Below, piece by piece: positions 16,860 through 32,510 of a stretch of 64,000 nt of DNA. The position numbers and the translations under genes are program-made. Source of the DNA: an uncultured Woeseiaceae bacterium (lineage in GTDB: Bacteria; Pseudomonadota; Gammaproteobacteria; Steroidobacterales; Woeseiaceae); contig CAZKZE010000005.1 in NCBI GenBank assembly GCA_964557165.1, positions 2,344 through 66,343 on the forward strand, written 5' to 3'. Position 1 is the stretch's first letter; every line of letters starts with the position of its first letter. Below the pieces are notes generated by a model. That model had not been told where the DNA came from. It was given only the letters and a program-made list of their open reading frames with translations, and did no database searches.

Positions 16860-18506
16860 TTAACCAAAGTACCCATGCAGGTACCAGGAGGATTCGCCGG
16901 ATGATTTGTAATCGCGGTCGCGCTTACGATTTCGAAATACCCATAGTCGCCTGCCGTCCTGGCCTGCCGCCGTGTAGTAGTCACGAGAAATACCGTCCGC
17001 GTCCCACCAGCCGGTTTCGAGGCGCTCGGGGCCATCAATGAATCGCAGGCGACAGCCCTGGTGGACAGGATAACCACTGTCAGCAGGCAACAAGGCCGGC
17101 TCGGGCAGCATCCATAGCGGGCGCTGCAGGTACCGCGGGGGCTCGTCCAGCGTGTTGCTCGACCAGTCCGAAAGCAGGCTCTGGGAGCTCCAGGCATAGT
17201 GCGGCCGGTGCTCGGCCACCATGGACGTTGCCTGTACCGATTGGTCACCGATACGCGCGATGAGCCGCTCCGCGAGTTGCGTGATCGAAAACCGCCGTTG
17301 CTGTGTCCCGGGTTTGCCCTGGAAGTTCAAGATTGCCGACTCCGCCTGCAGCGCTTGTGCCATGCCACTGCGCAAGCGTACGGCGATAACCGGTTCAGGC
17401 AGTACCAATTGCTCAAAACGAATACCCAGCAACTCGAACCAGCGGCTGGCCGAGCGTTCCGCCTGGGCGCAACCGAGACGCAGTTCCGTCGCCGGTCCCT
17501 TGAGATGGAAAAAACTGAAACTTAGACGCTGCGCCCCGAGTTGGCGCGCCAGCAAGAATTGCTCATGTGACTGCAGCAGCTCATTACAAATATTGAGCAG
17601 CACCTCGCGATCGATTTGCTCTTCGGTCATCTCGTAATCCACACAAAACCGTTCGGGGGCACGCCAGGAATTACGTGGGTCGGGCAAATGGCCGAGCGCC
17701 CGATCGAGTGCGAGCAAATATTCGGCGCCAAAGCGCCGTGTAAATCCTTCTCGCGGCAGGCGCAGGCAATCACCAACCGTGGTCACACCCATTCCCGTCA
17801 GTGCCTCGCACAACGTGGCCGGCCAATTGAGGCAGGTAATCGACAGTTTGCGTAAGGCCGGCACCAGGTTTGTTTCATCGCGTACGCAGACACGGTGCCC
17901 GGAGCGCGCCAGCCAGGTTGCCGCAAGCGGCGTCGGCGCAATCGCAGGCGATGCTGTAAACCCGAGTTCCCGCAGGCCTGCAGAAATTTTTTGCCGCAAT
18001 TCCTGTAAACCATCAAACAAACGCAGGCTACCCGCGATCTCGAGTAGCAACACGTTCTGATCGGCAATGGAGACAAACGATGAAAATCGTTCCAGCCAGG
18101 TCGCCAGTCCTTCAAGTGCCTGCTGTTCGCGGAGCAAACTACGCTCTTCGAGTTCCAGACCTGGCAGTAATGCAAGCGCTGCGTTGGCAGCCTGCCCCGG
18201 CATCACGCCGGCAGCGCGGGCCTCGGCATCGGCCAGCAGGATACGGTGAATGCCGTGTTGTTCCTCGACCACAGCTGTCGCACCATCTGAGGACCTGTTT
18301 GCTTCCAGCGGCAGGTGCGGCAGCCACACGCAAAACCACAGCCGCTCCACGGCTGCAGGAGCGGCCACTGGCCGCGACTTGTCGCGAACCGAAACCTCCT
18401 GGCGGCCGATGGCCGCTCCTACGAGCGGCAGGTCCTGCTGTACCGCAGGGGAAGTCGGGGCAACGTCCCGCCCCATGACGGGTGGTTTGCAGGCCCGTGA
18501 TTTCAT
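16860..18506 (-). CDS. imuB: Y-family-polymerase-like translesion protein ImuB (the N-terminal ~52 residues may not be translated)
   Basis: 548 aa. The conserved start-like block ERLWFCVWLPHLPLEA occurs at residue ~54; a GTG at 18350-18348 is an alternative start. ATG at 18506 abuts the imuA stop (TAAATG). Sits between imuA and dnaE2. Confidence 0.85.
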   Translation of the reverse strand: MKSRACKPPVMGRDVAPTSPAVQQDLPLVGAAIGRQEVSVRDKSRPVAAPAAVERLWFCVWLPHLPLEANRSSDGATAVVEEQHGIHRILLADAEARAAGVMPGQAANAALALLPGLELEERSLLREQQALEGLATWLERFSSFVSIADQNVLLLEIAGSLRLFDGLQELRQKISAGLRELGFTASPAIAPTPLAATWLARSGHRVCVRDETNLVPALRKLSITCLNWPATLCEALTGMGVTTVGDCLRLPREGFTRRFGAEYLLALDRALGHLPDPRNSWRAPERFCVDYEMTEEQIDREVLLNICNELLQSHEQFLLARQLGAQRLSFSFFHLKGPATELRLGCAQAERSASRWFELLGIRFEQLVLPEPVIAVRLRSGMAQALQAESAILNFQGKPGTQQRRFSITQLAERLIARIGDQSVQATSMVAEHRPHYAWSSQSLLSDWSSNTLDEPPRYLQRPLWMLPEPALLPADSGYPVHQGCRLRFIDGPERLETGWWDADGISRDYYTAAGQDGRRLWVFRNRKRDRDYKSSGESSWYLHGYFG

Positions 18507-22171: not shown

Positions 22172-22717
22172 ATGAGCCTCAGGATATCCTTCGAACTCAC
22201 TGACCGCGACCTGCGGTTCTTCCGCAAAGCGCTCCGCCAGTCACGTGCAGCCGTCAAAGATGCGGAGGATACCGAAATAATCGAGGCTATCCGGGCGGTC
22301 CTCGAGGAAATTCGAGGCAGCGAGCCGTTGCCGGACTTCGTCGGCAAGCGCATTCCGGAGCTCGAATCGTTGATCAGCATGCTGACCGACGATGAATGGC
22401 AATTGCCCGAATCTGATCGTGAGCGCCTTCTGGCAACCTTCGTCTATTTCGCGGACCCGGAGGACATACTCCCCGACGATATCCCGGTTATCGGCTATCT
22501 GGATGACGTCATTATCATCGAGCTGGTGGCGCGTGAACTGCAACATGTGCGTGAAGCCTACGATGACTTCTGCGATTTCAGGGACGATTACGAAAAAGCA
22601 CACGGCGCCGACGAAGACCCGGTCATTCGCCGCGATCGACTGGACCGGCGACGTCAACAGTTGCACCAGCGAATGCGACGCCGCTCAGCGCAAGAGAAGA
22701 AAAGCAGTTTGTGGTAA
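22172..22717 (+). CDS. DUF1232 (YkvA-like) domain protein
   Basis: 181 aa. DPEDILPDDIPVIGYLDDVIIIELVARELQ is the DUF1232 signature as I remember it. Basic C-terminal tail; no obvious TM. Confidence 0.65.
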   Translation: MSLRISFELTDRDLRFFRKALRQSRAAVKDAEDTEIIEAIRAVLEEIRGSEPLPDFVGKRIPELESLISMLTDDEWQLPESDRERLLATFVYFADPEDILPDDIPVIGYLDDVIIIELVARELQHVREAYDDFCDFRDDYEKAHGADEDPVIRRDRLDRRRQQLHQRMRRRSAQEKKSSLW

Positions 22718-22805
22718 ATAAGGTGCCAGTCACCCTATTTCCGTTGATATCTTCAGCCTGGCGATAGCGGGTTTCAGGAAATAGGGTGACTGGCACCTTA
22801 TTTAC
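22714..22805. repeat. perfect 29-bp inverted repeat (arms 22714-22742 and 22777-22805, 34-bp spacer), member of the GGTGCCAGTCACC palindromic repeat family; likely bidirectional terminator
   Basis: Left arm gtaaataaggtgccagtcaccctatttcc is the exact reverse complement of the right arm. The arms contain the TAA stops of both convergent genes (22715-22717 and 22802-22804). Confidence 0.9.
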
Positions 22806-25609: not shown

Positions 25610-25728
25610 GGCGCGCGCATGATAAGGACCGTCGCTGCTTAAGTCAAAGCCTTGGGGACATAAATTTCAGCCCGCGGCGCCAAACCGGGTAGACTTTGGC
25701 GTTCTTGTCTTAAGGTTTTGATTTGTTT

Positions 25729-26322
25729 ATGCAAAATCCGTCAGCACCGCAGATCGTCCTGGCATCGTCGTCATCCTACCGGCGGGGCCTGCTGAATCGA
25801 TTCCTCGACCAGTACGAAGTCGTCTCGCCGGAGGTCGACGAGCGCAACGACCAGGACCTTGGGCCGGCGGACCTCGCAAGACATCTCGCGCGCAAGAAGG
25901 CCGAAGCGGTCGCGCCCAATGCTCGCGATGCGCTGGTCATCGGTGCAGATCAATTGGCAGTAATCGAAGACAAGGTGCTTGGCAAGCCGGGCGACCACTC
26001 GAAGGCCATCGAACAGTTGCTCGCCGCATCCGGCAAGGCCGTGACCTTCCTGACGGCTGTCTGCATCCTGGATCCCGTCGGTCGGGCGCGCTACGAACAC
26101 ACCGACAAGACCATCGTTCGTTTCCGACAGTTCGACCGCCGCCTGGCTGAGGCCTACCTGCGCCACGACGAGCCTTATGACTGCGCCGGAAGCTTCAAAC
26201 TTGAGGGCGCGGGCTTTGTCCTGTTCGAAGCGGTGCAGACAGATGACCCGACCGCCATCATTGGCCTGCCAATGATCTGGGTTGCCGACCGCCTGCTGCA
26301 GCTCGGATACCTGTTGCCGTAG
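25729..26322 (+). CDS. Maf-like nucleoside triphosphate pyrophosphatase (YceF type)
   Basis: ORF 25723-26322; ATG at 25729. IVLASSSSYRRGLLNRF...VIGADQLAVIEDKVLGKPGDHSKA...YDCAGSFKLEGAGFVLFE motifs. Divergent from yceD as in E. coli. Confidence 0.85.
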   Translation: MQNPSAPQIVLASSSSYRRGLLNRFLDQYEVVSPEVDERNDQDLGPADLARHLARKKAEAVAPNARDALVIGADQLAVIEDKVLGKPGDHSKAIEQLLAASGKAVTFLTAVCILDPVGRARYEHTDKTIVRFRQFDRRLAEAYLRHDEPYDCAGSFKLEGAGFVLFEAVQTDDPTAIIGLPMIWVADRLLQLGYLLP

Positions 26323-26346
26323 CACCGTGAACGGAATGAAGAGTCC

Positions 26347-27360
26347 ATGATCGCGTCAGCTGCGCTTGTTCTTATCGGATTCTCGATCGTCGCGGCGCCA
26401 ATATTGCTCGTCGCCTACCTGTTTTTCCTGCGCGACATGGGAAAATCGAGACTCGGGTACATCGCTTGCATAGCTTTATTGCTTGCCATGACCGGATTGC
26501 AGCTCTATCACTGGTTCTTCTTGCTGCACGGGCTCGAGCCATTCGATCACCGGACCTATGTAATGCTCCAGATCATTACGCCGGCAGCGTTCTATTTCTT
26601 CAGTCGCGAAGTACTGGTCCCGGGAAGTACGCGTTCGCCCTGGAATTTCCTGCACCTTCTGCCGCTTGTCGTTGGGCTATTGTTGCCACTTGCCTGGGTT
26701 CCCATAATCGCTTTTGTCTTGGGCGCCGGGTACGCCGTCTGGTTCACCATGTTCGTGTTCGGCCTCAGAAGGCATGTAAATCGCTATTTGTTCGAGCTGT
26801 TCTTCTTCTGCTATTTCGCTGCGCTGGCGATCACAATGCTGGTTCTCGCGACGTCGGCGAAAGTCCTTGGTAACGATGTCTTCTACCTGGCCTATGCCTT
26901 GTTCACCGGAGCGACCTTTGTGCTCGTTACCGCGGCGATGATCTGGTTCCCGGAAATTCTGGATGACATGTCCGACGCTGCGCGACTTGCCTACGCGTCT
27001 TCGACACTCGGCGGCGTGGATATTGAAGGCAGGATCAAGGCTCTCGAACACGCTATGACTGACGACAAACTCTTCGAGAATGAAAACCTCAGCCTCGCAA
27101 TTCTCGCCGAGGCGGTCGAACTGTCGCCACACCAGCTTTCGGAACTAATCAACTCTCACGTCGGCTACGGCTTTTCTCGATATGTTCGCGAATACCGTGT
27201 TGCCGCGGCTAAACGCCTCCTGATCGAGGACCGCTCTGCCTCGATCCTCTCGATCGGCCTGGCGACCGGTTTCCGTTCCCAGTCGAATTTCTATGCCGCG
27301 TTTCAGGAATTGACTGACATGTCGCCCGGCAATTGGCGCAAACGTCACAGCGACAGTTGA
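26347..27360 (+). CDS. membrane-embedded AraC-family transcriptional regulator
   Basis: 337 aa with six to seven hydrophobic segments in residues 1-200. C-terminal AraC HTH: LSLAILAEAVELSPHQLSELINSHVGYGFSRYVREYRVAAAKRLL...GFRSQSNFYAAFQELTDMSPGNWRK. Confidence 0.8.
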   Translation: MIASAALVLIGFSIVAAPILLVAYLFFLRDMGKSRLGYIACIALLLAMTGLQLYHWFFLLHGLEPFDHRTYVMLQIITPAAFYFFSREVLVPGSTRSPWNFLHLLPLVVGLLLPLAWVPIIAFVLGAGYAVWFTMFVFGLRRHVNRYLFELFFFCYFAALAITMLVLATSAKVLGNDVFYLAYALFTGATFVLVTAAMIWFPEILDDMSDAARLAYASSTLGGVDIEGRIKALEHAMTDDKLFENENLSLAILAEAVELSPHQLSELINSHVGYGFSRYVREYRVAAAKRLLIEDRSASILSIGLATGFRSQSNFYAAFQELTDMSPGNWRKRHSDS

Positions 27361-27474
27361 GTCGTCTCCGGAATGATCAATCAGTAAGGTTATAAATAGC
27401 TGATTATTAAGGTCTTTTCAGCTTCTTGTTCCATTCGGGCCAAGCAGGAAGCCGGTCACCACCCTGCCACTTAC

Positions 27475-27505
27475 TGTCTCCTGCCTATCAATCGTAAAGG
27501 AGACA
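27475..27505 (+). promoter_or_regulatory. hairpin sequestering the Shine-Dalgarno of the 27509 ORF
   Basis: tgtctcct (27475-27482) pairs perfectly with aggagaca (27498-27505). The 15-nt loop is followed by ATG at 27509. Confidence 0.4.
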
Positions 27506-27508
27506 AAC

Positions 27509-27877
27509 ATGCTGACCACCGCAAATTACGTCATTTATCTCGCGCTAAGCATCTTCACGGTCGCTTATATTTCATCCACCCTGAATCGCGACGGGCGAAC
27601 CTTCCTCGTGGAAGGATTTGAAGGCGATAACAACCTCGCCTATGCGATCAGCCGACTCCTCATGGCCGGTGTTTACCTCATCAGCCTCGGATTCGTCCTT
27701 CTGCGTATGCGCACACGAGTGCAGATCGATACCTTTGAAGAAATGCTCGTCTACCAGGCCGAAGGCATCGGTCTCGTCCTGCTCGTGCTCGGCGTCGGGC
27801 ACTTCTTCAGCATCAACGTTGTACTCCGCATCGCACGGCGTGGGCTCGGCATGTACACGAGAGCAGGACTGAAATGA
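27509..27877 (+). CDS. small polytopic membrane protein, unknown family (122 aa, about 3 TM)
   Basis: Strong SD (aaggaga) 6-7 nt upstream. Hydrophobic segments YVIYLALSIFTVAYISS, LLMAGVYLISLGFVLL, GIGLVLLVLGVGHFFSINVVL. No family recognised. Confidence 0.55.
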   Translation: MLTTANYVIYLALSIFTVAYISSTLNRDGRTFLVEGFEGDNNLAYAISRLLMAGVYLISLGFVLLRMRTRVQIDTFEEMLVYQAEGIGLVLLVLGVGHFFSINVVLRIARRGLGMYTRAGLK

Positions 27878-28275
27878 GCAGTCTGCTATTCATCGTATTT
27901 GGCGTATTGCCAGTGGTCGCCCTGGGATTGCTGGCATTTATACCACTCGTCTTCGGCTTTGCGATTGTGCTTTCAAAGCCGGCTTCAGGCATGTTGCTGA
28001 TTGTCTGGGCCACGGCTGGGCTGTTCGGCGCCCGTACCATGTTGCAGATATGGAGCGGCACATATACCGAGAACACGACGCTCGGCCTGCTGGCTGGTAT
28101 CGCCGCTGCCTCCCCTCTCACCGTGCCGATCCTCCTGGACGGGCACGTGTCGAGCTCGTTTGCGTGGCTCTATTTCACCGTCAGTCCGGTAATCGTGGCC
28201 GCAGGATTGCTTGCGGACCGACTGCTATTCCGGCTGGATGGCGACGCACGAATCGCCGAGTACGAAGACGCATGA
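27874..28275 (+). CDS. small polytopic membrane protein, unknown family (133 aa, about 4 TM)
   Basis: ATGA overlap with the preceding ORF (27874-27877). Hydrophobic segments LLFIVFGVLPVVALGLLAFIPLVFGFAIVL, MLLIVWATAGLFG, LGLLAGIAAASPLTVPILL, WLYFTVSPVIVAAGLL. Confidence 0.55.
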   Translation: MSSLLFIVFGVLPVVALGLLAFIPLVFGFAIVLSKPASGMLLIVWATAGLFGARTMLQIWSGTYTENTTLGLLAGIAAASPLTVPILLDGHVSSSFAWLYFTVSPVIVAAGLLADRLLFRLDGDARIAEYEDA

Positions 28276-28292
28276 GTTGAGCGGCGGACATT

Positions 28293-28334
28293 GTCGCCGA
28301 TCGCCTGCTGCAATTGGGATACCTGCTCCCCTAG
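28293..28334 (+). pseudogene. orphan second copy of the maf 3' end (encodes VADRLLQLGYLLP plus stop)
   Basis: 34/42 nt identical to 26281-26322. All 8 differences are synonymous in the maf frame, and the stop codon TAG is the same. Confidence 0.7.
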
Positions 28335-28337
28335 AAC

Positions 28338-28407
28338 GGTGCCAGTCACCTTATTTCCAGTCTAAGGTGACTGGCACCCTTAGACTGGAAATAAGGTGAC
28401 TGACACC
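28338..28407. repeat. nested palindromic repeat with three copies of the GGTGCCAGTCACC core (same family as 22714-22805)
   Basis: 29-bp arms 28338-28366 and 28379-28407 are complementary with one mismatch. The central core 28366-28378 is the exact complement of 28338-28350. The element fills the gap between the orphan maf stop and the rluC stop. Confidence 0.85.
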
Positions 28408-28409
28408 AA

Positions 28410-29396
28410 TTAACGCTGTTTCTTGCGGCGCTGCGCTTCGATCACGCCTGCCGTCAGGAATTCCTCGAGGTCATCGGCCAGCGGCGCCGTGAAGTGCAGT
28501 TCGTTACCACTATCGTCCGCAAAGGCGATGGACTGGGCGTGCAGGAACAGGCGTTTGAGACCGAGTCCTTTCGCCTGTTTGTTCGCTTCTTCATCGCCGT
28601 ACCGAGTGTCCCCAGCTATTGGATGCCCGGCATGTTGCAGGTGTACACGGATCTGGTGGGTACGCCCGGTCGCCGGGGCACATTGCAGCAGGCTGTAAAT
28701 CCCGTAGGTACGAGACAGGCTGATACGTGTCTGTGCCTCTTTGCCCTTGTCACTGACGATAACGTGCCGTTCACCACCTTTGCGGTTTTGCACCAGTAGC
28801 GGCACATCGATAAGTTGCTCGCCGTACTGCCAGTCCCCCACCGCCAGCGCCAGGTAATTCTTCTCGACCTGCCCGACCCGAAATCGCTCGTTCAACTCGC
28901 GGAGCGCGCTGCGCCGCTTGGCCATGACCAGGCAGCCTGACGTTTCCCGGTCGATGCGATGGACGAGGCCCAGATCCTTTAGATCCGGCCGCGCGAAGCG
29001 CAGAAGCTCGATCACGCCGTGGCTGATCCCGCTGCCACCGTGAACCGCGAGCCCCGTCGGCTTGTTGATCACCAGCAGCCGCTTGTCCTCGTAAATCACA
29101 CGATCGAGCATGGCCGTTGCCAGCTTCTCGGGCGGCGGCGGGCTGCCGACGCTCACTCGTGCCGGCGGTATACGCACCTCATCGCCTTCCTGGAGCTTGT
29201 ATTCGGCCCGGATGCGGCCGCCGTTAACTCGTACCTCGCCACGCCGCAGCAGGCGGTAGACCCGCCCTTTCGGAACCCCGGGCAACTCATTGCGCAGAAA
29301 ATTGTCGATTCGTTGACCCGCGCGCTCTGAATCGACCTGGACCTTGCGGACGCCCGTGGCGCGCAAGTTCGCGTCTTTGGGGGAGTTTTCTTGCAT
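28410..29396 (-). CDS. rluC: 23S rRNA pseudouridine synthase RluC
   Basis: ORF 28410-29552; the conserved protein starts at internal ATG 29396. S4 domain (AGQRIDNFLRNELPGVPKGRVYRLLRRGEVRVNG) and catalytic HRIDRETSGCLVMAK. Divergent from rne as in E. coli. Confidence 0.9.
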   Translation of the reverse strand: MQENSPKDANLRATGVRKVQVDSERAGQRIDNFLRNELPGVPKGRVYRLLRRGEVRVNGGRIRAEYKLQEGDEVRIPPARVSVGSPPPPEKLATAMLDRVIYEDKRLLVINKPTGLAVHGGSGISHGVIELLRFARPDLKDLGLVHRIDRETSGCLVMAKRRSALRELNERFRVGQVEKNYLALAVGDWQYGEQLIDVPLLVQNRKGGERHVIVSDKGKEAQTRISLSRTYGIYSLLQCAPATGRTHQIRVHLQHAGHPIAGDTRYGDEEANKQAKGLGLKRLFLHAQSIAFADDSGNELHFTAPLADDLEEFLTAGVIEAQRRKKQR

Positions 29397-29423
29397 GATC
29401 TTTGCTTTTGCGGCGAGGAGGTG

Positions 29424-29741
29424 TGCTATATTAGCGCCCAGAGGCGTTTGGGCATACCAGCCTATGCGCTCCATACGAATTATTTTTTGGTCCCGCAAGC
29501 CTGCGAGACCTGATTTCAGATGGCAGCAAGCCCGGAATCCGGCCTGCGCCAACGCGGCAAAGCCGCAGGGAAATCATGCTGATTGTATTTTTGGTACTGA
29601 CCAATCTGGGTCAGACCTACACAGAGATAACGAGCTTTATAGCCGACGCAATCCGGCGTCGCTCTCCTGTGCGTGACATCCCCTGCGCCCGCATGGCGCC
29701 CAGCCCCGTATTGCTGTCCTCTTACAAACAAGTAGGACAAC
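29424..29741 (+). promoter_or_regulatory. candidate rne promoter (extended -10 TGcTATATT at 29424-29432) and long structured 5' leader
   Basis: 345-bp non-coding gap upstream of rne. It has an extended -10 and several GC stem-loops (for example ggtcccgca/tgcgagacc near 29490-29511 and cgacgc/gcgtcg near 29643-29660). E. coli rne has a ~360-nt autoregulatory leader. Confidence 0.4.
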
Positions 29742-32510
29742 ATGAAAAGAATGCTAATCAATGCAACTCAGCAAGAAGAGTTGCGCATGGCGATGGTCGA
29801 CGGCCAAAAGTTGTACGACCTCAATATCGAAGCACCGGCTAGCGAACGCAAAAAAGCCAACATCTACAAAGGCAAGATTACGCGCATCGAGCCCAGCCTC
29901 GAAGCCGCGTTTGTCGATTACGGTGCCGAACGTCACGGCTTCCTGCCGCTGAAGGAAATCTCCAGCGAATACTTCGTCAAGGATGCCAAGGGCGGCGGCA
30001 AGCCCAATATCAAGGACGTGCTCAAGGAAGGCCAGGACATCGTTGTCCAGGTCGACAAGGAAGAGCGCGGTAACAAGGGCGCTGCCCTGACGACGTTTGT
30101 CAGCCTCGCAGGCCGCTTCATCGTTCTCAAGCCGAACAAGTCGCGCTCCGGCGGCGTCTCGCGACGCATTACCGGCGGAGACCGTGATGCCGCCAGAAAA
30201 TCGCTGAATGAAATCGTCGTCCCCGATGGTATGAGCGTCATTCTGCGAACGGCCGGTATCGACCGCAGTGCGGAAGAGCTTGCCTGGGATCTCGAGAACC
30301 TGCTGACCGTCTGGACGGCCATCCTGAATGTCGTTCTCGAACGGCCGTCACCGTTCCTGATCTACCGTGAAAGTGACTCGGTCGTGCGTGCTTTGCGCGA
30401 TTACCTCACCAACGAAATCGGTGAGATCCTGATCGATGACGAGCAGACCTATAAAGATGCTTGCGAGCACGTCGAAGCGACGATGCCGCACAACATCAAG
30501 AAACTGAAGCACTACGTCGACCCGGTACCCCTGTTTACGCGCTTCCAGATCGAGTCACAGATCGAGTCTGCATTCGCACACACGGTCCACCTCCCCTCGG
30601 GTGGCAGCATCGTCATTGATCACACCGAAGCGCTCGTGTCGATCGACATCAACTCGGCGCGCGCGACCAAGGGTGGCGACATCGAAGCCACTGCATTGAA
30701 CACCAACCTCGAGGCGGCGGACGAGGTCGCGCGCCAGTTGCGTGTCCGCGACCTTGGCGGCCTTATCGTCATCGACTTCATCGACATGGGACCTTCCAAG
30801 CATCAGCGCGATGTCGAGAATCGCCTGCGCGAGGCGGTCCGCCAGGATCGTGCCCGCGTGCAAATCGGCAAGATCAGCCGTTTCGGATTGCTCGAGATGT
30901 CTCGCCAGAGGCTGCGCCCGTCAATCGGCGAATCGGCCCACATGACCTGCCCGCGTTGCTCGGGCTTTGGCAATATTCGCAGCGTCGAGTCACTCGCGCT
31001 CGCTATCCTGCGAATCGTCGGCGAAGAAGCACGTAAGGAGCGCACGGCAAAAGTCATCGCGCAATTACCAGTTGAGGTATCGACCTACCTGCTGAACGAA
31101 AAACGCGACTGGGTACAGAGCCTCGAAGATAGCAACGACACGCAGATCGTGTTGATCGCCAACCCACAGCTCGAAACACCGCATTACGAAGTTCGCCGGG
31201 TTCGCGACGATCAAACCGACTTGCCCGAGAACACCGGCGTCAGCTACGCGCTCTCCGATGCAGCGGCCGAACCAGAGGCACCGCAGGCAATTCTCGAACG
31301 CAAAGCGATTGAAGCGCCGGTTGTGGGTACGTTGAAACCATCGAAGCCCGCTCCAAAACGTGAGAAGCCGAAGGGCAAAGGACTGATCGCATCGATCGTC
31401 TCGCTATTCGCTGGCGAAGAAGAGGATGACCAGCCGCAGAAGTCTCGTAAGAAAGGCGCTCAGCAGAGTCGCAGCCGCCGTTCACAGCAATCGAAACGCC
31501 GCGGCAGTGATCAGCGCGGAACACAGCGCAAGAAGACGCAAAAGAAGACCACCAAGAAAGCGCAGCCCAAGAAGTCGGCGAAAAAGACCTCGTCACGCCG
31601 CAAGCCAGCGCAGAAGGACGTGCAGAAGGACGCGCAGAAGAAGCCGCAGCAGTCTGCCGCCAGCGAGGCCAAAGACGAGTCGCAGAACGAGCCAAAACGC
31701 TCACCGCGGAGTCGGCGCAGCCGGGGTGGACGTCGTCGCCGTCGCGGCGCTGAAAAGCCCGAGCAGGCAGCAGATACGCAACAGCAGACAAGTTCGCCCG
31801 AGCAGGCCGATAAGGCGCCGCAGCAACCGCCGAAGGAATCGGCTGAAAAGAAATCCAGGCCACCTCGCGCACGGACTGACGCCGAGCGCGCGGAAGCTGC
31901 TGACAAGCCAGACGGTGCCGCGGAGAAAAAAGCGGCGAAGCCTGAACAGACGGAAAAGCCGGCAGATACACAGGCTGCCGAAGCCAAACCAAAACGTCCT
32001 CGGGCGAGGAAGCCGGCCGCGAAGAAGGCGGCGGCGGAGTCTTCAACATCTTCCACCGAGAAGCCCGCAGAGAAGCCCAAGGCGGACAAACCGAAGGCCG
32101 ACAAGCCCGAAGCCGACAAGCCCAAGGCTGCCAAACCGGAAGCTGATAAGCCCAAGACGGACAAACCCAAGGCAGAGAAGCCCAGAGAACAGAAGAAACC
32201 GGAATCCAGGCCGGCTGCGACCGGCGGTAATGGCGCAGAAGGCGCGGCGAAGCCGCGGCTCCTGCCATGGGAACCACAGTCATTGCCGGTAGCCGCGAAG
32301 CCTGCTGACAAGCCCGCCGCGGCATCAGACAACAAGCCCGAGAAGAAGAAACCGGAAGCGGCGAAACCGAAGCCTGAGCCGAAATCCGAGGCGCCGCCCT
32401 CGCCCAAGCCGGTTCAGGAAGCGCCCAAGCCTGAAGCTGCGCCCGCACCCAAACCGGCGCCGGAAATTACGAAGCCGGCAGAGAAGCCTGCCGACCCAAT
32501 TCAGGACTAG
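29742..32510 (+). CDS. rne: ribonuclease E
   Basis: 922 aa. MKRMLINATQQEELRMAMVDGQKLYDLNIE start, S1 domain, catalytic core (GGSIVIDHTEALVSIDINSARAT; LGGLIVIDFIDM), Zn-link CPRCSGFG. Long Lys/Pro/Ala/Glu-rich C-terminal scaffold. Confidence 0.95.
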   Translation: MKRMLINATQQEELRMAMVDGQKLYDLNIEAPASERKKANIYKGKITRIEPSLEAAFVDYGAERHGFLPLKEISSEYFVKDAKGGGKPNIKDVLKEGQDIVVQVDKEERGNKGAALTTFVSLAGRFIVLKPNKSRSGGVSRRITGGDRDAARKSLNEIVVPDGMSVILRTAGIDRSAEELAWDLENLLTVWTAILNVVLERPSPFLIYRESDSVVRALRDYLTNEIGEILIDDEQTYKDACEHVEATMPHNIKKLKHYVDPVPLFTRFQIESQIESAFAHTVHLPSGGSIVIDHTEALVSIDINSARATKGGDIEATALNTNLEAADEVARQLRVRDLGGLIVIDFIDMGPSKHQRDVENRLREAVRQDRARVQIGKISRFGLLEMSRQRLRPSIGESAHMTCPRCSGFGNIRSVESLALAILRIVGEEARKERTAKVIAQLPVEVSTYLLNEKRDWVQSLEDSNDTQIVLIANPQLETPHYEVRRVRDDQTDLPENTGVSYALSDAAAEPEAPQAILERKAIEAPVVGTLKPSKPAPKREKPKGKGLIASIVSLFAGEEEDDQPQKSRKKGAQQSRSRRSQQSKRRGSDQRGTQRKKTQKKTTKKAQPKKSAKKTSSRRKPAQKDVQKDAQKKPQQSAASEAKDESQNEPKRSPRSRRSRGGRRRRRGAEKPEQAADTQQQTSSPEQADKAPQQPPKESAEKKSRPPRARTDAERAEAADKPDGAAEKKAAKPEQTEKPADTQAAEAKPKRPRARKPAAKKAAAESSTSSTEKPAEKPKADKPKADKPEADKPKAAKPEADKPKTDKPKAEKPREQKKPESRPAATGGNGAEGAAKPRLLPWEPQSLPVAAKPADKPAAASDNKPEKKKPEAAKPKPEPKSEAPPSPKPVQEAPKPEAAPAPKPAPEITKPAEKPADPIQD
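32058..32183 (+). repeat. in-frame 15-nt (pentapeptide xDKPK/xEKPx) tandem repeats in the RNase E C-terminal region
   Basis: EKPAEKPKADKPKADKPEADKPKAAKPEADKPKTDKPKAEKP read from the translation; the nucleotide units are imperfect. Confidence 0.8.

Follow-up and report, generated by a model that had tools for sequence, protein, structure and literature searches.

An orphan maf gene end beside rluC in a Woeseiaceae bacterium, probably a scar of recombination between two junction alleles

The genes maf and rluC of a Woeseiaceae bacterium converge on a junction that carries a cassette of three genes and, behind it, a second end of maf. We analysed this locus within a 64-kb stretch of DNA, called the window here, to the whole of which all coordinates refer unless a relative is named. 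The current, functional maf terminus (copy 1 of a 42-nt repeat, 26281..26322, + strand, GTTGCCGACCGCCTGCTGCAGCTCGGATACCTGTTGCCGTAG) is followed 2 kb downstream by an orphan terminus (copy 2, 28293..28334, + strand, GTCGCCGATCGCCTGCTGCAATTGGGATACCTGCTCCCCTAG), a non-coding relic; both encode VADRLLQLGYLLP*. The orphan is very probably a recombination scar, whichever of the two parents received the other's DNA. Both parental architectures are found in relatives, the joint between them is unique to the window species, and the cassette is old at its site.

The two copies are identical at 34 of 42 positions and specify the same 13 residues and stop codon. All eight differences, spread over six codons, are silent; the silent share of the single substitutions possible in this 42-mer is 29%. 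Under random change, an all-silent outcome has a probability of 5e-6 for eight differences and of 0.005 for four. Since the differences are silent only, both copies must, as far as their sequences tell, have diverged while serving as functional gene ends in different lineages, a pattern that is unlike the decay of a local duplicate. Our recomputation agrees in every count with the preliminary description of this DNA, and these probabilities support its proposal that the termini diverged under selection in two lineages. Upstream of the 42 nt the similarity breaks off sharply, and little of it remains after the stop codon (5/7); the longest identical run between the copies is 11 nt.

Several trivial accounts of the orphan were tried and rejected. 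Chance similarity is ruled out by the silent-only statistics and by the degenerate 30-nt core of the repeat, which occurs at two places only in the window, with none expected in shuffles. The orphan is not a piece of a longer conserved open reading frame (ORF): its frame contains a TGA at 28278-28280, 15 nt upstream, and has no start codon. Nor does it belong to the adjoining repetitive extragenic palindromic (REP) element, as another copy of that element at 22714-22805 has no maf fragment and the 42-mer occurs twice only. Finally, an assembly artefact is ruled out, because all ten same-species contigs that reach the orphan, from other samples (JGI, ENA and Logan), share the arrangement unchanged at 97.9-100% identity. 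Samples that contain the species include JGI 3300028598, 3300028600 and 3300025895 and ENA ERZ27295567.

Relatives were collected by Maf-query scans of representative genomes and metagenomes. The resulting 160 loci, numbered with the prefix L, come nearly all from Woeseiaceae or from unclassified metagenome-assembled genomes (MAGs) of Gammaproteobacteria with yceD-maf ... rluC-rne synteny. The closest match in the scans, at 91-93% amino-acid identity to the Maf query, has an empty site, and exact-protein look-ups for a closer relative returned the same species only. Indeed, the closest relatives L001, L002 and L081, with amino-acid identities of 91-92% for Maf, 93% for RluC and 95-98% for RNase E, all lack the cassette: their maf and rluC are separated by a 118-nt gap or a 38-nt gap, or overlap by 16 nt, the overlap being that of L002. 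Such empty sites have a single maf terminus in these three loci, in L027 and L008, and in many others. In L027 and L008, the empty site consists of the maf end, the REP family of the window and the rluC stop. The window sequence 28296-28560, which comprises the orphan, the REP element and the 3' end of rluC, is collinear with L027 at 85% identity over 268 nt and with L008 at 77%. The empty site that the preliminary description had anticipated in relatives is therefore real, both in the closest ones and in the form that keeps the same repeat between the maf stop and rluC.

The other architecture is found in nine more distant loci, which carry the same cassette at the same site: it is complete in L003, L022, L028, L109, L147 and L156, lies on partial contigs in L092 and L111, and is decayed in L093. 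In all nine carriers, the junction between the maf stop and the start of the first cassette gene, araC, is orthologous to that of the window. The last cassette gene, o133, ends in the carriers about -12 to +47 nt from the rluC stop. None of the nine has a second maf terminus, and none of the seven that reach rluC has the window's REP family (REP1) between cassette and rluC. In the window, o133 is followed by a 17-nt spacer (28276..28292, GTTGAGCGGCGGACATT) that ends at the joint 28292/28293, where the orphan begins. This novel, illegitimate joint has no match in the 160 related loci, whereas the left junction and the right side both have counterparts. Among the same 160 loci we found no second orphan maf end, and a gene-end duplicate of either maf or rluC is absent from 14 other insert-bearing loci, leaving the window species as the sole case among 15. 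The scar reading follows from this: the locus is a composite of two alleles seen in relatives, and its only unmatched sequence is the joint.

The course of events may be pictured as follows. Woeseiaceae have alternative alleles at this junction, one with the cassette (maf, a membrane AraC-type regulator, two small membrane proteins, rluC) and others that are empty, in some cases with a REP element between the two stops. In an ancestor of the species, DNA from a relative with the other allele would have recombined at maf/rluC. One end would have paired homologously; the other end, lacking usable homology, would have been joined illegitimately, in the manner of homology-facilitated illegitimate recombination (HFIR). 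The product would be a cassette allele running through o133 and 17 nt beyond it, joined to an empty-plus-REP allele from 42 nt before its maf stop onwards (orphan, REP, rluC). Each terminus would formerly have been a working end in its own lineage, which would explain why the copies differ only silently, and the orphan would now be devoid of function.

HFIR is known from naturally transformable bacteria: it has been described for Streptococcus pneumoniae, Acinetobacter baylyi and Pseudomonas stutzeri when they take up linear DNA, and E. coli conjugation shows it at low efficiency (PMC3240628). The locus resembles these cases in that one side is seamless in homologous sequence and the other is a novel, non-homologous joint, with the insertion, perhaps accompanied by a small replacement, lying at a site flanked by core genes; here, in addition, both parental architectures are present in relatives. 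It differs from them in its partners, both of them alleles of one locus in related lineages instead of foreign DNA, and in its evidence: we infer the HFIR mechanism, its direction and the DNA uptake from comparative sequence alone. HFIR has also been invoked for orphaned 3' gene ends and immunity genes at Rhs loci and loci of type VI secretion systems (T6SS) (PMC5361080). At such Rhs, contact-dependent inhibition (CDI) and T6SS loci, as here, a working 3' end is kept while an alternative end is stranded downstream of new genes. Both ends encode an identical housekeeping peptide in our case, however, and there is a single orphan with no array, no toxin/immunity logic and no apparent selective benefit. 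Instead of distinct toxin tips with immunity genes, the cargo consists of a regulator and small membrane proteins.

As to the direction of the exchange, we consider it rather likely, though the preference is a weak one, that the cassette allele was resident and that a piece of an empty allele bearing the orphan was imported. The incoming DNA would have been the last 42 nt of maf, the REP element and the 3' end of rluC from an empty-site relative. The event would amount to an aborted cassette deletion, with a homologous crossover in rluC and, immediately behind o133, an illegitimate joint: had both crossovers been regular, the cassette would have been lost, but the left end would have had too little homology. 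The favoured direction relies first on maf, which is sister-like to its end: along its whole length the gene is closest to L001, L002 and L081 (84% nucleotide identity), and its last 173 nt are 88% identical to L001. The current 42-mer is closer to L001 (38/42) than the orphan is (32/42); it matches the cassette carriers L109 and L111 equally well (38/42). The direction relies further on both sides of the joint. In L081 and L105, a second type of palindromic repeat is found 3' of the maf stop, and the left end of that repeat, GAGCGGCG, is what the spacer starts with; the first bases of the spacer also resemble the o133-rluC spacers of L156 and L022. On the other side, the 5' part of rluC is sister-like, but its last 150 nt are 82-86% identical to L091, L109 and L027 as against 79-81% to the sisters. 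Because all the non-sister features are contiguous, one import would explain the orphan, the REP element and the tip of rluC together. These observations weakly suggest that the orphan is imported and not native; its assignment as the native terminus, made in the preliminary description, is if anything disfavoured.

The same mechanism could have run in the opposite direction. An empty-site genome (maf-REP-rluC) would then have taken up the cassette from a carrier by a crossover in or upstream of maf, with the joint formed 42 nt before the resident stop, which would have pushed the resident terminus downstream, a 3'-end displacement of the Rhs type. That the closest relatives L001, L081 and L002 have empty sites is in line with this, as is the REP family beside the orphan, which is native to the genome (second copy at 22714-22805); 3'-end displacement of the HFIR type is moreover a documented model (PMC5361080). 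Yet the current maf 3' end, by the identities just given, is the sister-like one, no close cassette donor was found (araC is at most 79% identical at the amino-acid level to any carrier, as diverged as the flanks), and the gap in L081 and L105 holds a different repeat type, which the stump left of the orphan resembles. We regard this direction as possible but unlikely.

Several points weigh against a scar with an imported orphan. Neither parent allele of the exact lineage was found; in maf, the nearest relatives differ by about 16%. Among relatives, the orphan is matched best by L156, at only 36/42, and next by the L004/L005 group at 35/42 with 6 of 8 diagnostic sites. The direction depends on a handful of sites, and the sisters L081 and L002 match the current and orphan copies about equally (34/33 and 33/34, respectively). 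The signal at the rluC 3' end amounts to just 3-7 nt, and mosaicism scans of maf and rluC for the direction of transfer gave weak signals, in maf without a clear switch. With three closest relatives that lack the cassette, parsimony would have the cassette and a new maf end enter an empty-plus-REP genome. No clear microhomology is demonstrable at the joint: the L022 spacer between o133 and rluC shares the motif GCCGATC with the beginning of the orphan, but the joint of the window sits elsewhere. Lastly, the scheme would presuppose an uptake of linear DNA, by natural competence or by interrupted conjugation or transduction, in an uncultured lineage. The junction ...CCAATGATCTGG|GTCGCCGATCGCCTGCTGCAATTGGG, in which the maf body is joined to the orphan version of its end, would be the diagnostic sequence of a surviving parent allele.

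The age of the cassette bears on all these readings. The cassette is an old resident of its site and not a recent import, since it occupies the same site in nine other loci, has diverged together with its flanks, has a native composition at third codon positions (GC3) and is decaying in place in L093. Across eight carriers, nucleotide identity in araC tracks that of maf plus rluC (r = 0.91); between the window and the carriers, araC is 67-77% identical and the flanks 76-78%. The three cargo genes have a GC3 of 0.675-0.687, against a window mean of 0.685 ± 0.043 (55 ORFs), and a foreign composition of the insert is ruled out on this measure. The drop in total GC noted in the preliminary description is roughly right in its figures (54.9% for the insert, 35% at 27361-27420, 62% for maf and rluC) but misleading, as GC3 is native: the lower total GC of the cargo (55-58%) reflects the composition of membrane proteins and one AT-rich intergenic stretch. 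In L093, the AraC-like gene alone is kept, and the 93-nt spacer between it and rluC (L093:3345-3438) encodes FLIYLVFGVIPVIVLGLLA, the N-terminus of the 133-aa protein; the persistence of this remnant shows a cassette that decays in place through internal deletions. No cassette remnants above shuffled controls were found in the empty-site gaps of the sister lineages.

An old, native cassette fits poorly with the integration of a mobile element, which the preliminary description had favoured. In such an account, a circular element carrying the cassette and a replacement maf terminus would have entered by site-specific or Campbell-type recombination, the 42-nt repeats being attL and attR and the recombinase acting in trans or since lost. 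Direct repeats do flank the insert, empty sites do exist in relatives, and silent-only differences do resemble the replacement gene ends that prophages supply. In E. coli, e14 and phage 21 integrate in the 3' end of icd, supply a replacement end and leave the icdC fragment behind. There as here, a duplicated terminus brackets the insert, the differences are mostly silent and the gene is intact. But the present insert has no integrase and no phage or island genes, the same cargo is found elsewhere without the duplicate, and it is compositionally and phylogenetically native. Pfam and NCBIfam searches of the three cargo proteins detected the AraC-type helix-turn-helix (HTH) domain alone and no integrase, transposase or recombinase; the preliminary description had likewise noted that an integrase or transposase is absent. 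An integrative element would be expected to encode a tyrosine or serine recombinase at one of its ends, to have repeats at every occupied site and to carry foreign or discordant cargo; of such hallmarks, only the empty sites in relatives are seen here. The repeat is missing from the nine other cassette loci and the 14 other insert-bearing loci, the maf-cassette junction is orthologous across carriers, the cassette co-diverges with its flanks at native GC3, and the identical run of just 11 nt is the longest that the copies share. Two of the three findings that the preliminary description had named as speaking against insertion were in fact made, namely relatives that carry the genes without the duplicate and a codon composition that matches; the third, an orphan lying in a longer ORF, was not. 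Integration is thus very unlikely.

A duplication in place, by target duplication upon insertion of the cassette or by replication slippage, followed by divergence or by replacement of the maf allele through homologous recombination, is more doubtful still. It would account for copies in direct orientation that bracket the insert exactly at the maf stop; but neutral decay would be mostly non-silent (p = 0.005 for four changes), an old event should have left remnants in other carriers, where none are seen, and nothing in this account predicts an orphan that is continuous with a REP element and an rluC end matching the empty allele of another lineage. Least probable of all is an orphan retained for a function, whether, for instance, it serves rluC or the cassette operon together with the REP hairpin, in a module of the 3' untranslated region (UTR) or of termination, or is translated into a peptide. 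Every same-species contig has it without change, and it adjoins a very stable hairpin; but strains that differ by 0-2% are expected to agree over 42 nt by chance, the in-frame TGA 15 nt upstream and the missing start codon stand against translation, there is no Rfam match, and no other lineage keeps such a copy.

The junction in which the orphan lies varies in content among relatives. In a neighbour-joining (NJ) tree of maf, rluC and rne, the window groups with the empty-site loci L001, L081 and L002, and the clade around it also holds the carriers L109, L093 and L003 together with further empty-site loci. Because empty and cassette lineages interleave in this tree, the pattern of presence and absence implies that the junction was gained, lost or replaced repeatedly. 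A maf/rluC 3' overlap of exactly 16 nt is common in Woeseiaceae (L002, L016, L017, L024, L025, L033, L035, L036 and others); elsewhere the overlap is 4-12 nt, and in a few loci, by stop-codon extension, 65-102 nt. An insertion at the junction therefore has to restore one of the two gene ends. Deletion could hardly bring back the ancestral 16-nt overlap exactly, as L002 has it; an allele replaced by homologous recombination within the conserved flanks would fit best.

Other cargo is found at the junction as well. L037 has a 674-aa tetratricopeptide repeat (TPR) protein there (L037:2945-4969), and L010, L029, L034, L040 and L131 have ORFs of 125-311 aa that give no Pfam match; no gene-end duplicate or recombinase match occurs in the cargo of these six loci. 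At least eight different contents were seen at the maf/rluC site, among them the window cassette, the TPR protein, a number of unannotated ORFs and palindromic repeats of at least four families. The site behaves like a minor hot spot where gene content varies. It could be taken a step further as a dedicated, recombinase-independent site of cassette exchange, where REP-type palindromes beside the conserved maf terminus would promote the capture and loss of small modules and the orphan would be a frozen intermediate, an extension to which we give little credence.

We regard the orphan as a scar of an ordinary kind that turns up in a new place and is fixed in a single species of Woeseiaceae, and not as a new molecular system. 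It offers a natural example of how small accessory cassettes between core genes may be exchanged, lost and sometimes mis-joined by recombination between diverged relatives, in a host group that is uncultured but very abundant in marine sediments. Two practical points arise from it. To find a duplicated gene terminus flanking an insert is not enough to infer an integrative element, and a duplicate with silent differences only is diagnostic, separating the joined gene ends of two lineages from a local duplication. The cargo may deserve attention in its own right, as this membrane-anchored regulator of AraC type, together with its conserved small membrane partners, recurs between housekeeping genes in other genomes.

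The cassette begins after a 24-nt spacer behind the maf stop (26323..26346, + strand, CACCGTGAACGGAATGAAGAGTCC), which is orthologous to the spacers of L093 (CCAGGTGCCGGAATGACGAACCC), L109 and L003. Its first gene (26347..27360, + strand) encodes a protein of 337 aa that has a multi-pass membrane domain at its N-terminus and, at its C-terminus, an AraC-type HTH domain (PF12833, residues 253-333, E = 3.6e-21). This AraC-like protein is 69-79% identical at the amino-acid level in the nine loci where the cassette occupies this site, and a 51% identical homologue exists in another genomic context. An AT-rich intergenic region follows upstream of the second and third genes (27361..27508, + strand, 46% GC). 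It is presumably the promoter/operator region; it contains no match to the sigma-70 consensus, and a scan for promoters and terminators was uninformative.

The second gene (27509..27877, + strand) encodes a small membrane protein of 122 aa, and the third, o133 (27874..28275, + strand), overlaps it and encodes one of 133 aa; neither has a Pfam match. The two evolve at very different rates across the carriers, with 89-93% amino-acid identity for the 122-aa protein as against 45-55% for the 133-aa protein. A search with the 122-aa protein found 62 homologues, with nothing between 98% (same species) and about 92%. Its gene is always paired with the AraC-like gene, including in L165 and L177, and homologues of the two at 51-53% identity sit together in unrelated contexts. 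In L177 (3843-6252), the pair lies between prs and rplY-pth-ychF along with two further small ORFs, and in L165 (4786-6369), it lies in yet another context, without the 133-aa gene. No integrase or mobility genes were found near the pair in either locus. The AraC-like/122-aa module seems to settle repeatedly between housekeeping genes. The obvious guess for the cargo is a sensor-regulator anchored in the membrane, with small membrane proteins as its partners.

The REP-like element, a nested palindrome of 75 nt (28335..28409) made of three GGTGCCAGTCACC-type units, separates the stop of the orphan from that of rluC. Its 30-nt arms are 97% complementary, and the region 28276-28420 folds at -70.6 kcal/mol (z = -7.7). 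Two other convergent genes have a member of the same family between them at 22714-22805; L027 (92-94%) and L008 have one at the corresponding maf/rluC position, and L051 and L039 contain further copies. With its palindromic units, multiple dispersed copies, family specificity and intergenic position between convergent genes, the element has the properties of REP sequences, and different families occupy the same junction in different relatives, as with REPs and REPINs. It explains the neighbourhood of the orphan but not the 42-nt coding duplicate, which, as said, the copy at 22714-22805 lacks. Rfam returned only sub-threshold matches to miRNA-like hairpins for the element, and inspection by eye for an integron attC-like site showed no R''/R' consensus. 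Three independent short-read assemblies of the window species (L164, L175 and L176) break inside the palindrome, with contig ends at window positions 28367-28372: this is typical repeat-induced fragmentation.

The middle unit of the element is inverted between the window (GGTGACTGGCACC) and L027:7601-7679 (GGTGTCAGTCACC), while the outer units agree, which suggests an inversion or an independent rearrangement within the REP cluster. At least four families of REP-like palindromes occupy the maf/rluC gap in different relatives: a GAGCGG...CCGCTC type is found in the empty-site gaps of L081, L105, L001, L084, L013 and L023, a GGGGACA... type in the gaps of L011, L026, L102 and L115, and a GGGGACGGTAACC type in L007. 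The palindrome GAGCGGCC...GGCCGCTC of the second repeat type also occurs in the window, at 18357-18420.

The flanking genes are ordinary. The gene maf (25723..26322, + strand) encodes a Maf/YceF-type nucleotide pyrophosphatase (PF02545, E = 4.5e-47), whose start is placed at 25729 by gene callers on same-species contigs. Convergent with it, rluC (28410..29498, - strand) encodes a 23S rRNA pseudouridine synthase with the domains PF00849 and PF01479; an alternative start lies at 29390, and the protein is called as 362 aa on same-species contigs. In L084 and L116, YceD is 91-92% identical to that of the window and the adjacent Maf 83-86%, a rank that is reversed in L001 and L081, which points to breakpoints of recombination between the two genes in this set of lineages. 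Further downstream, the C-terminal half of RNase E (31450-32500) is a long low-complexity tail, rich in lysine, proline, alanine and glutamate, with a very strong AT skew (+0.5 to +0.7).

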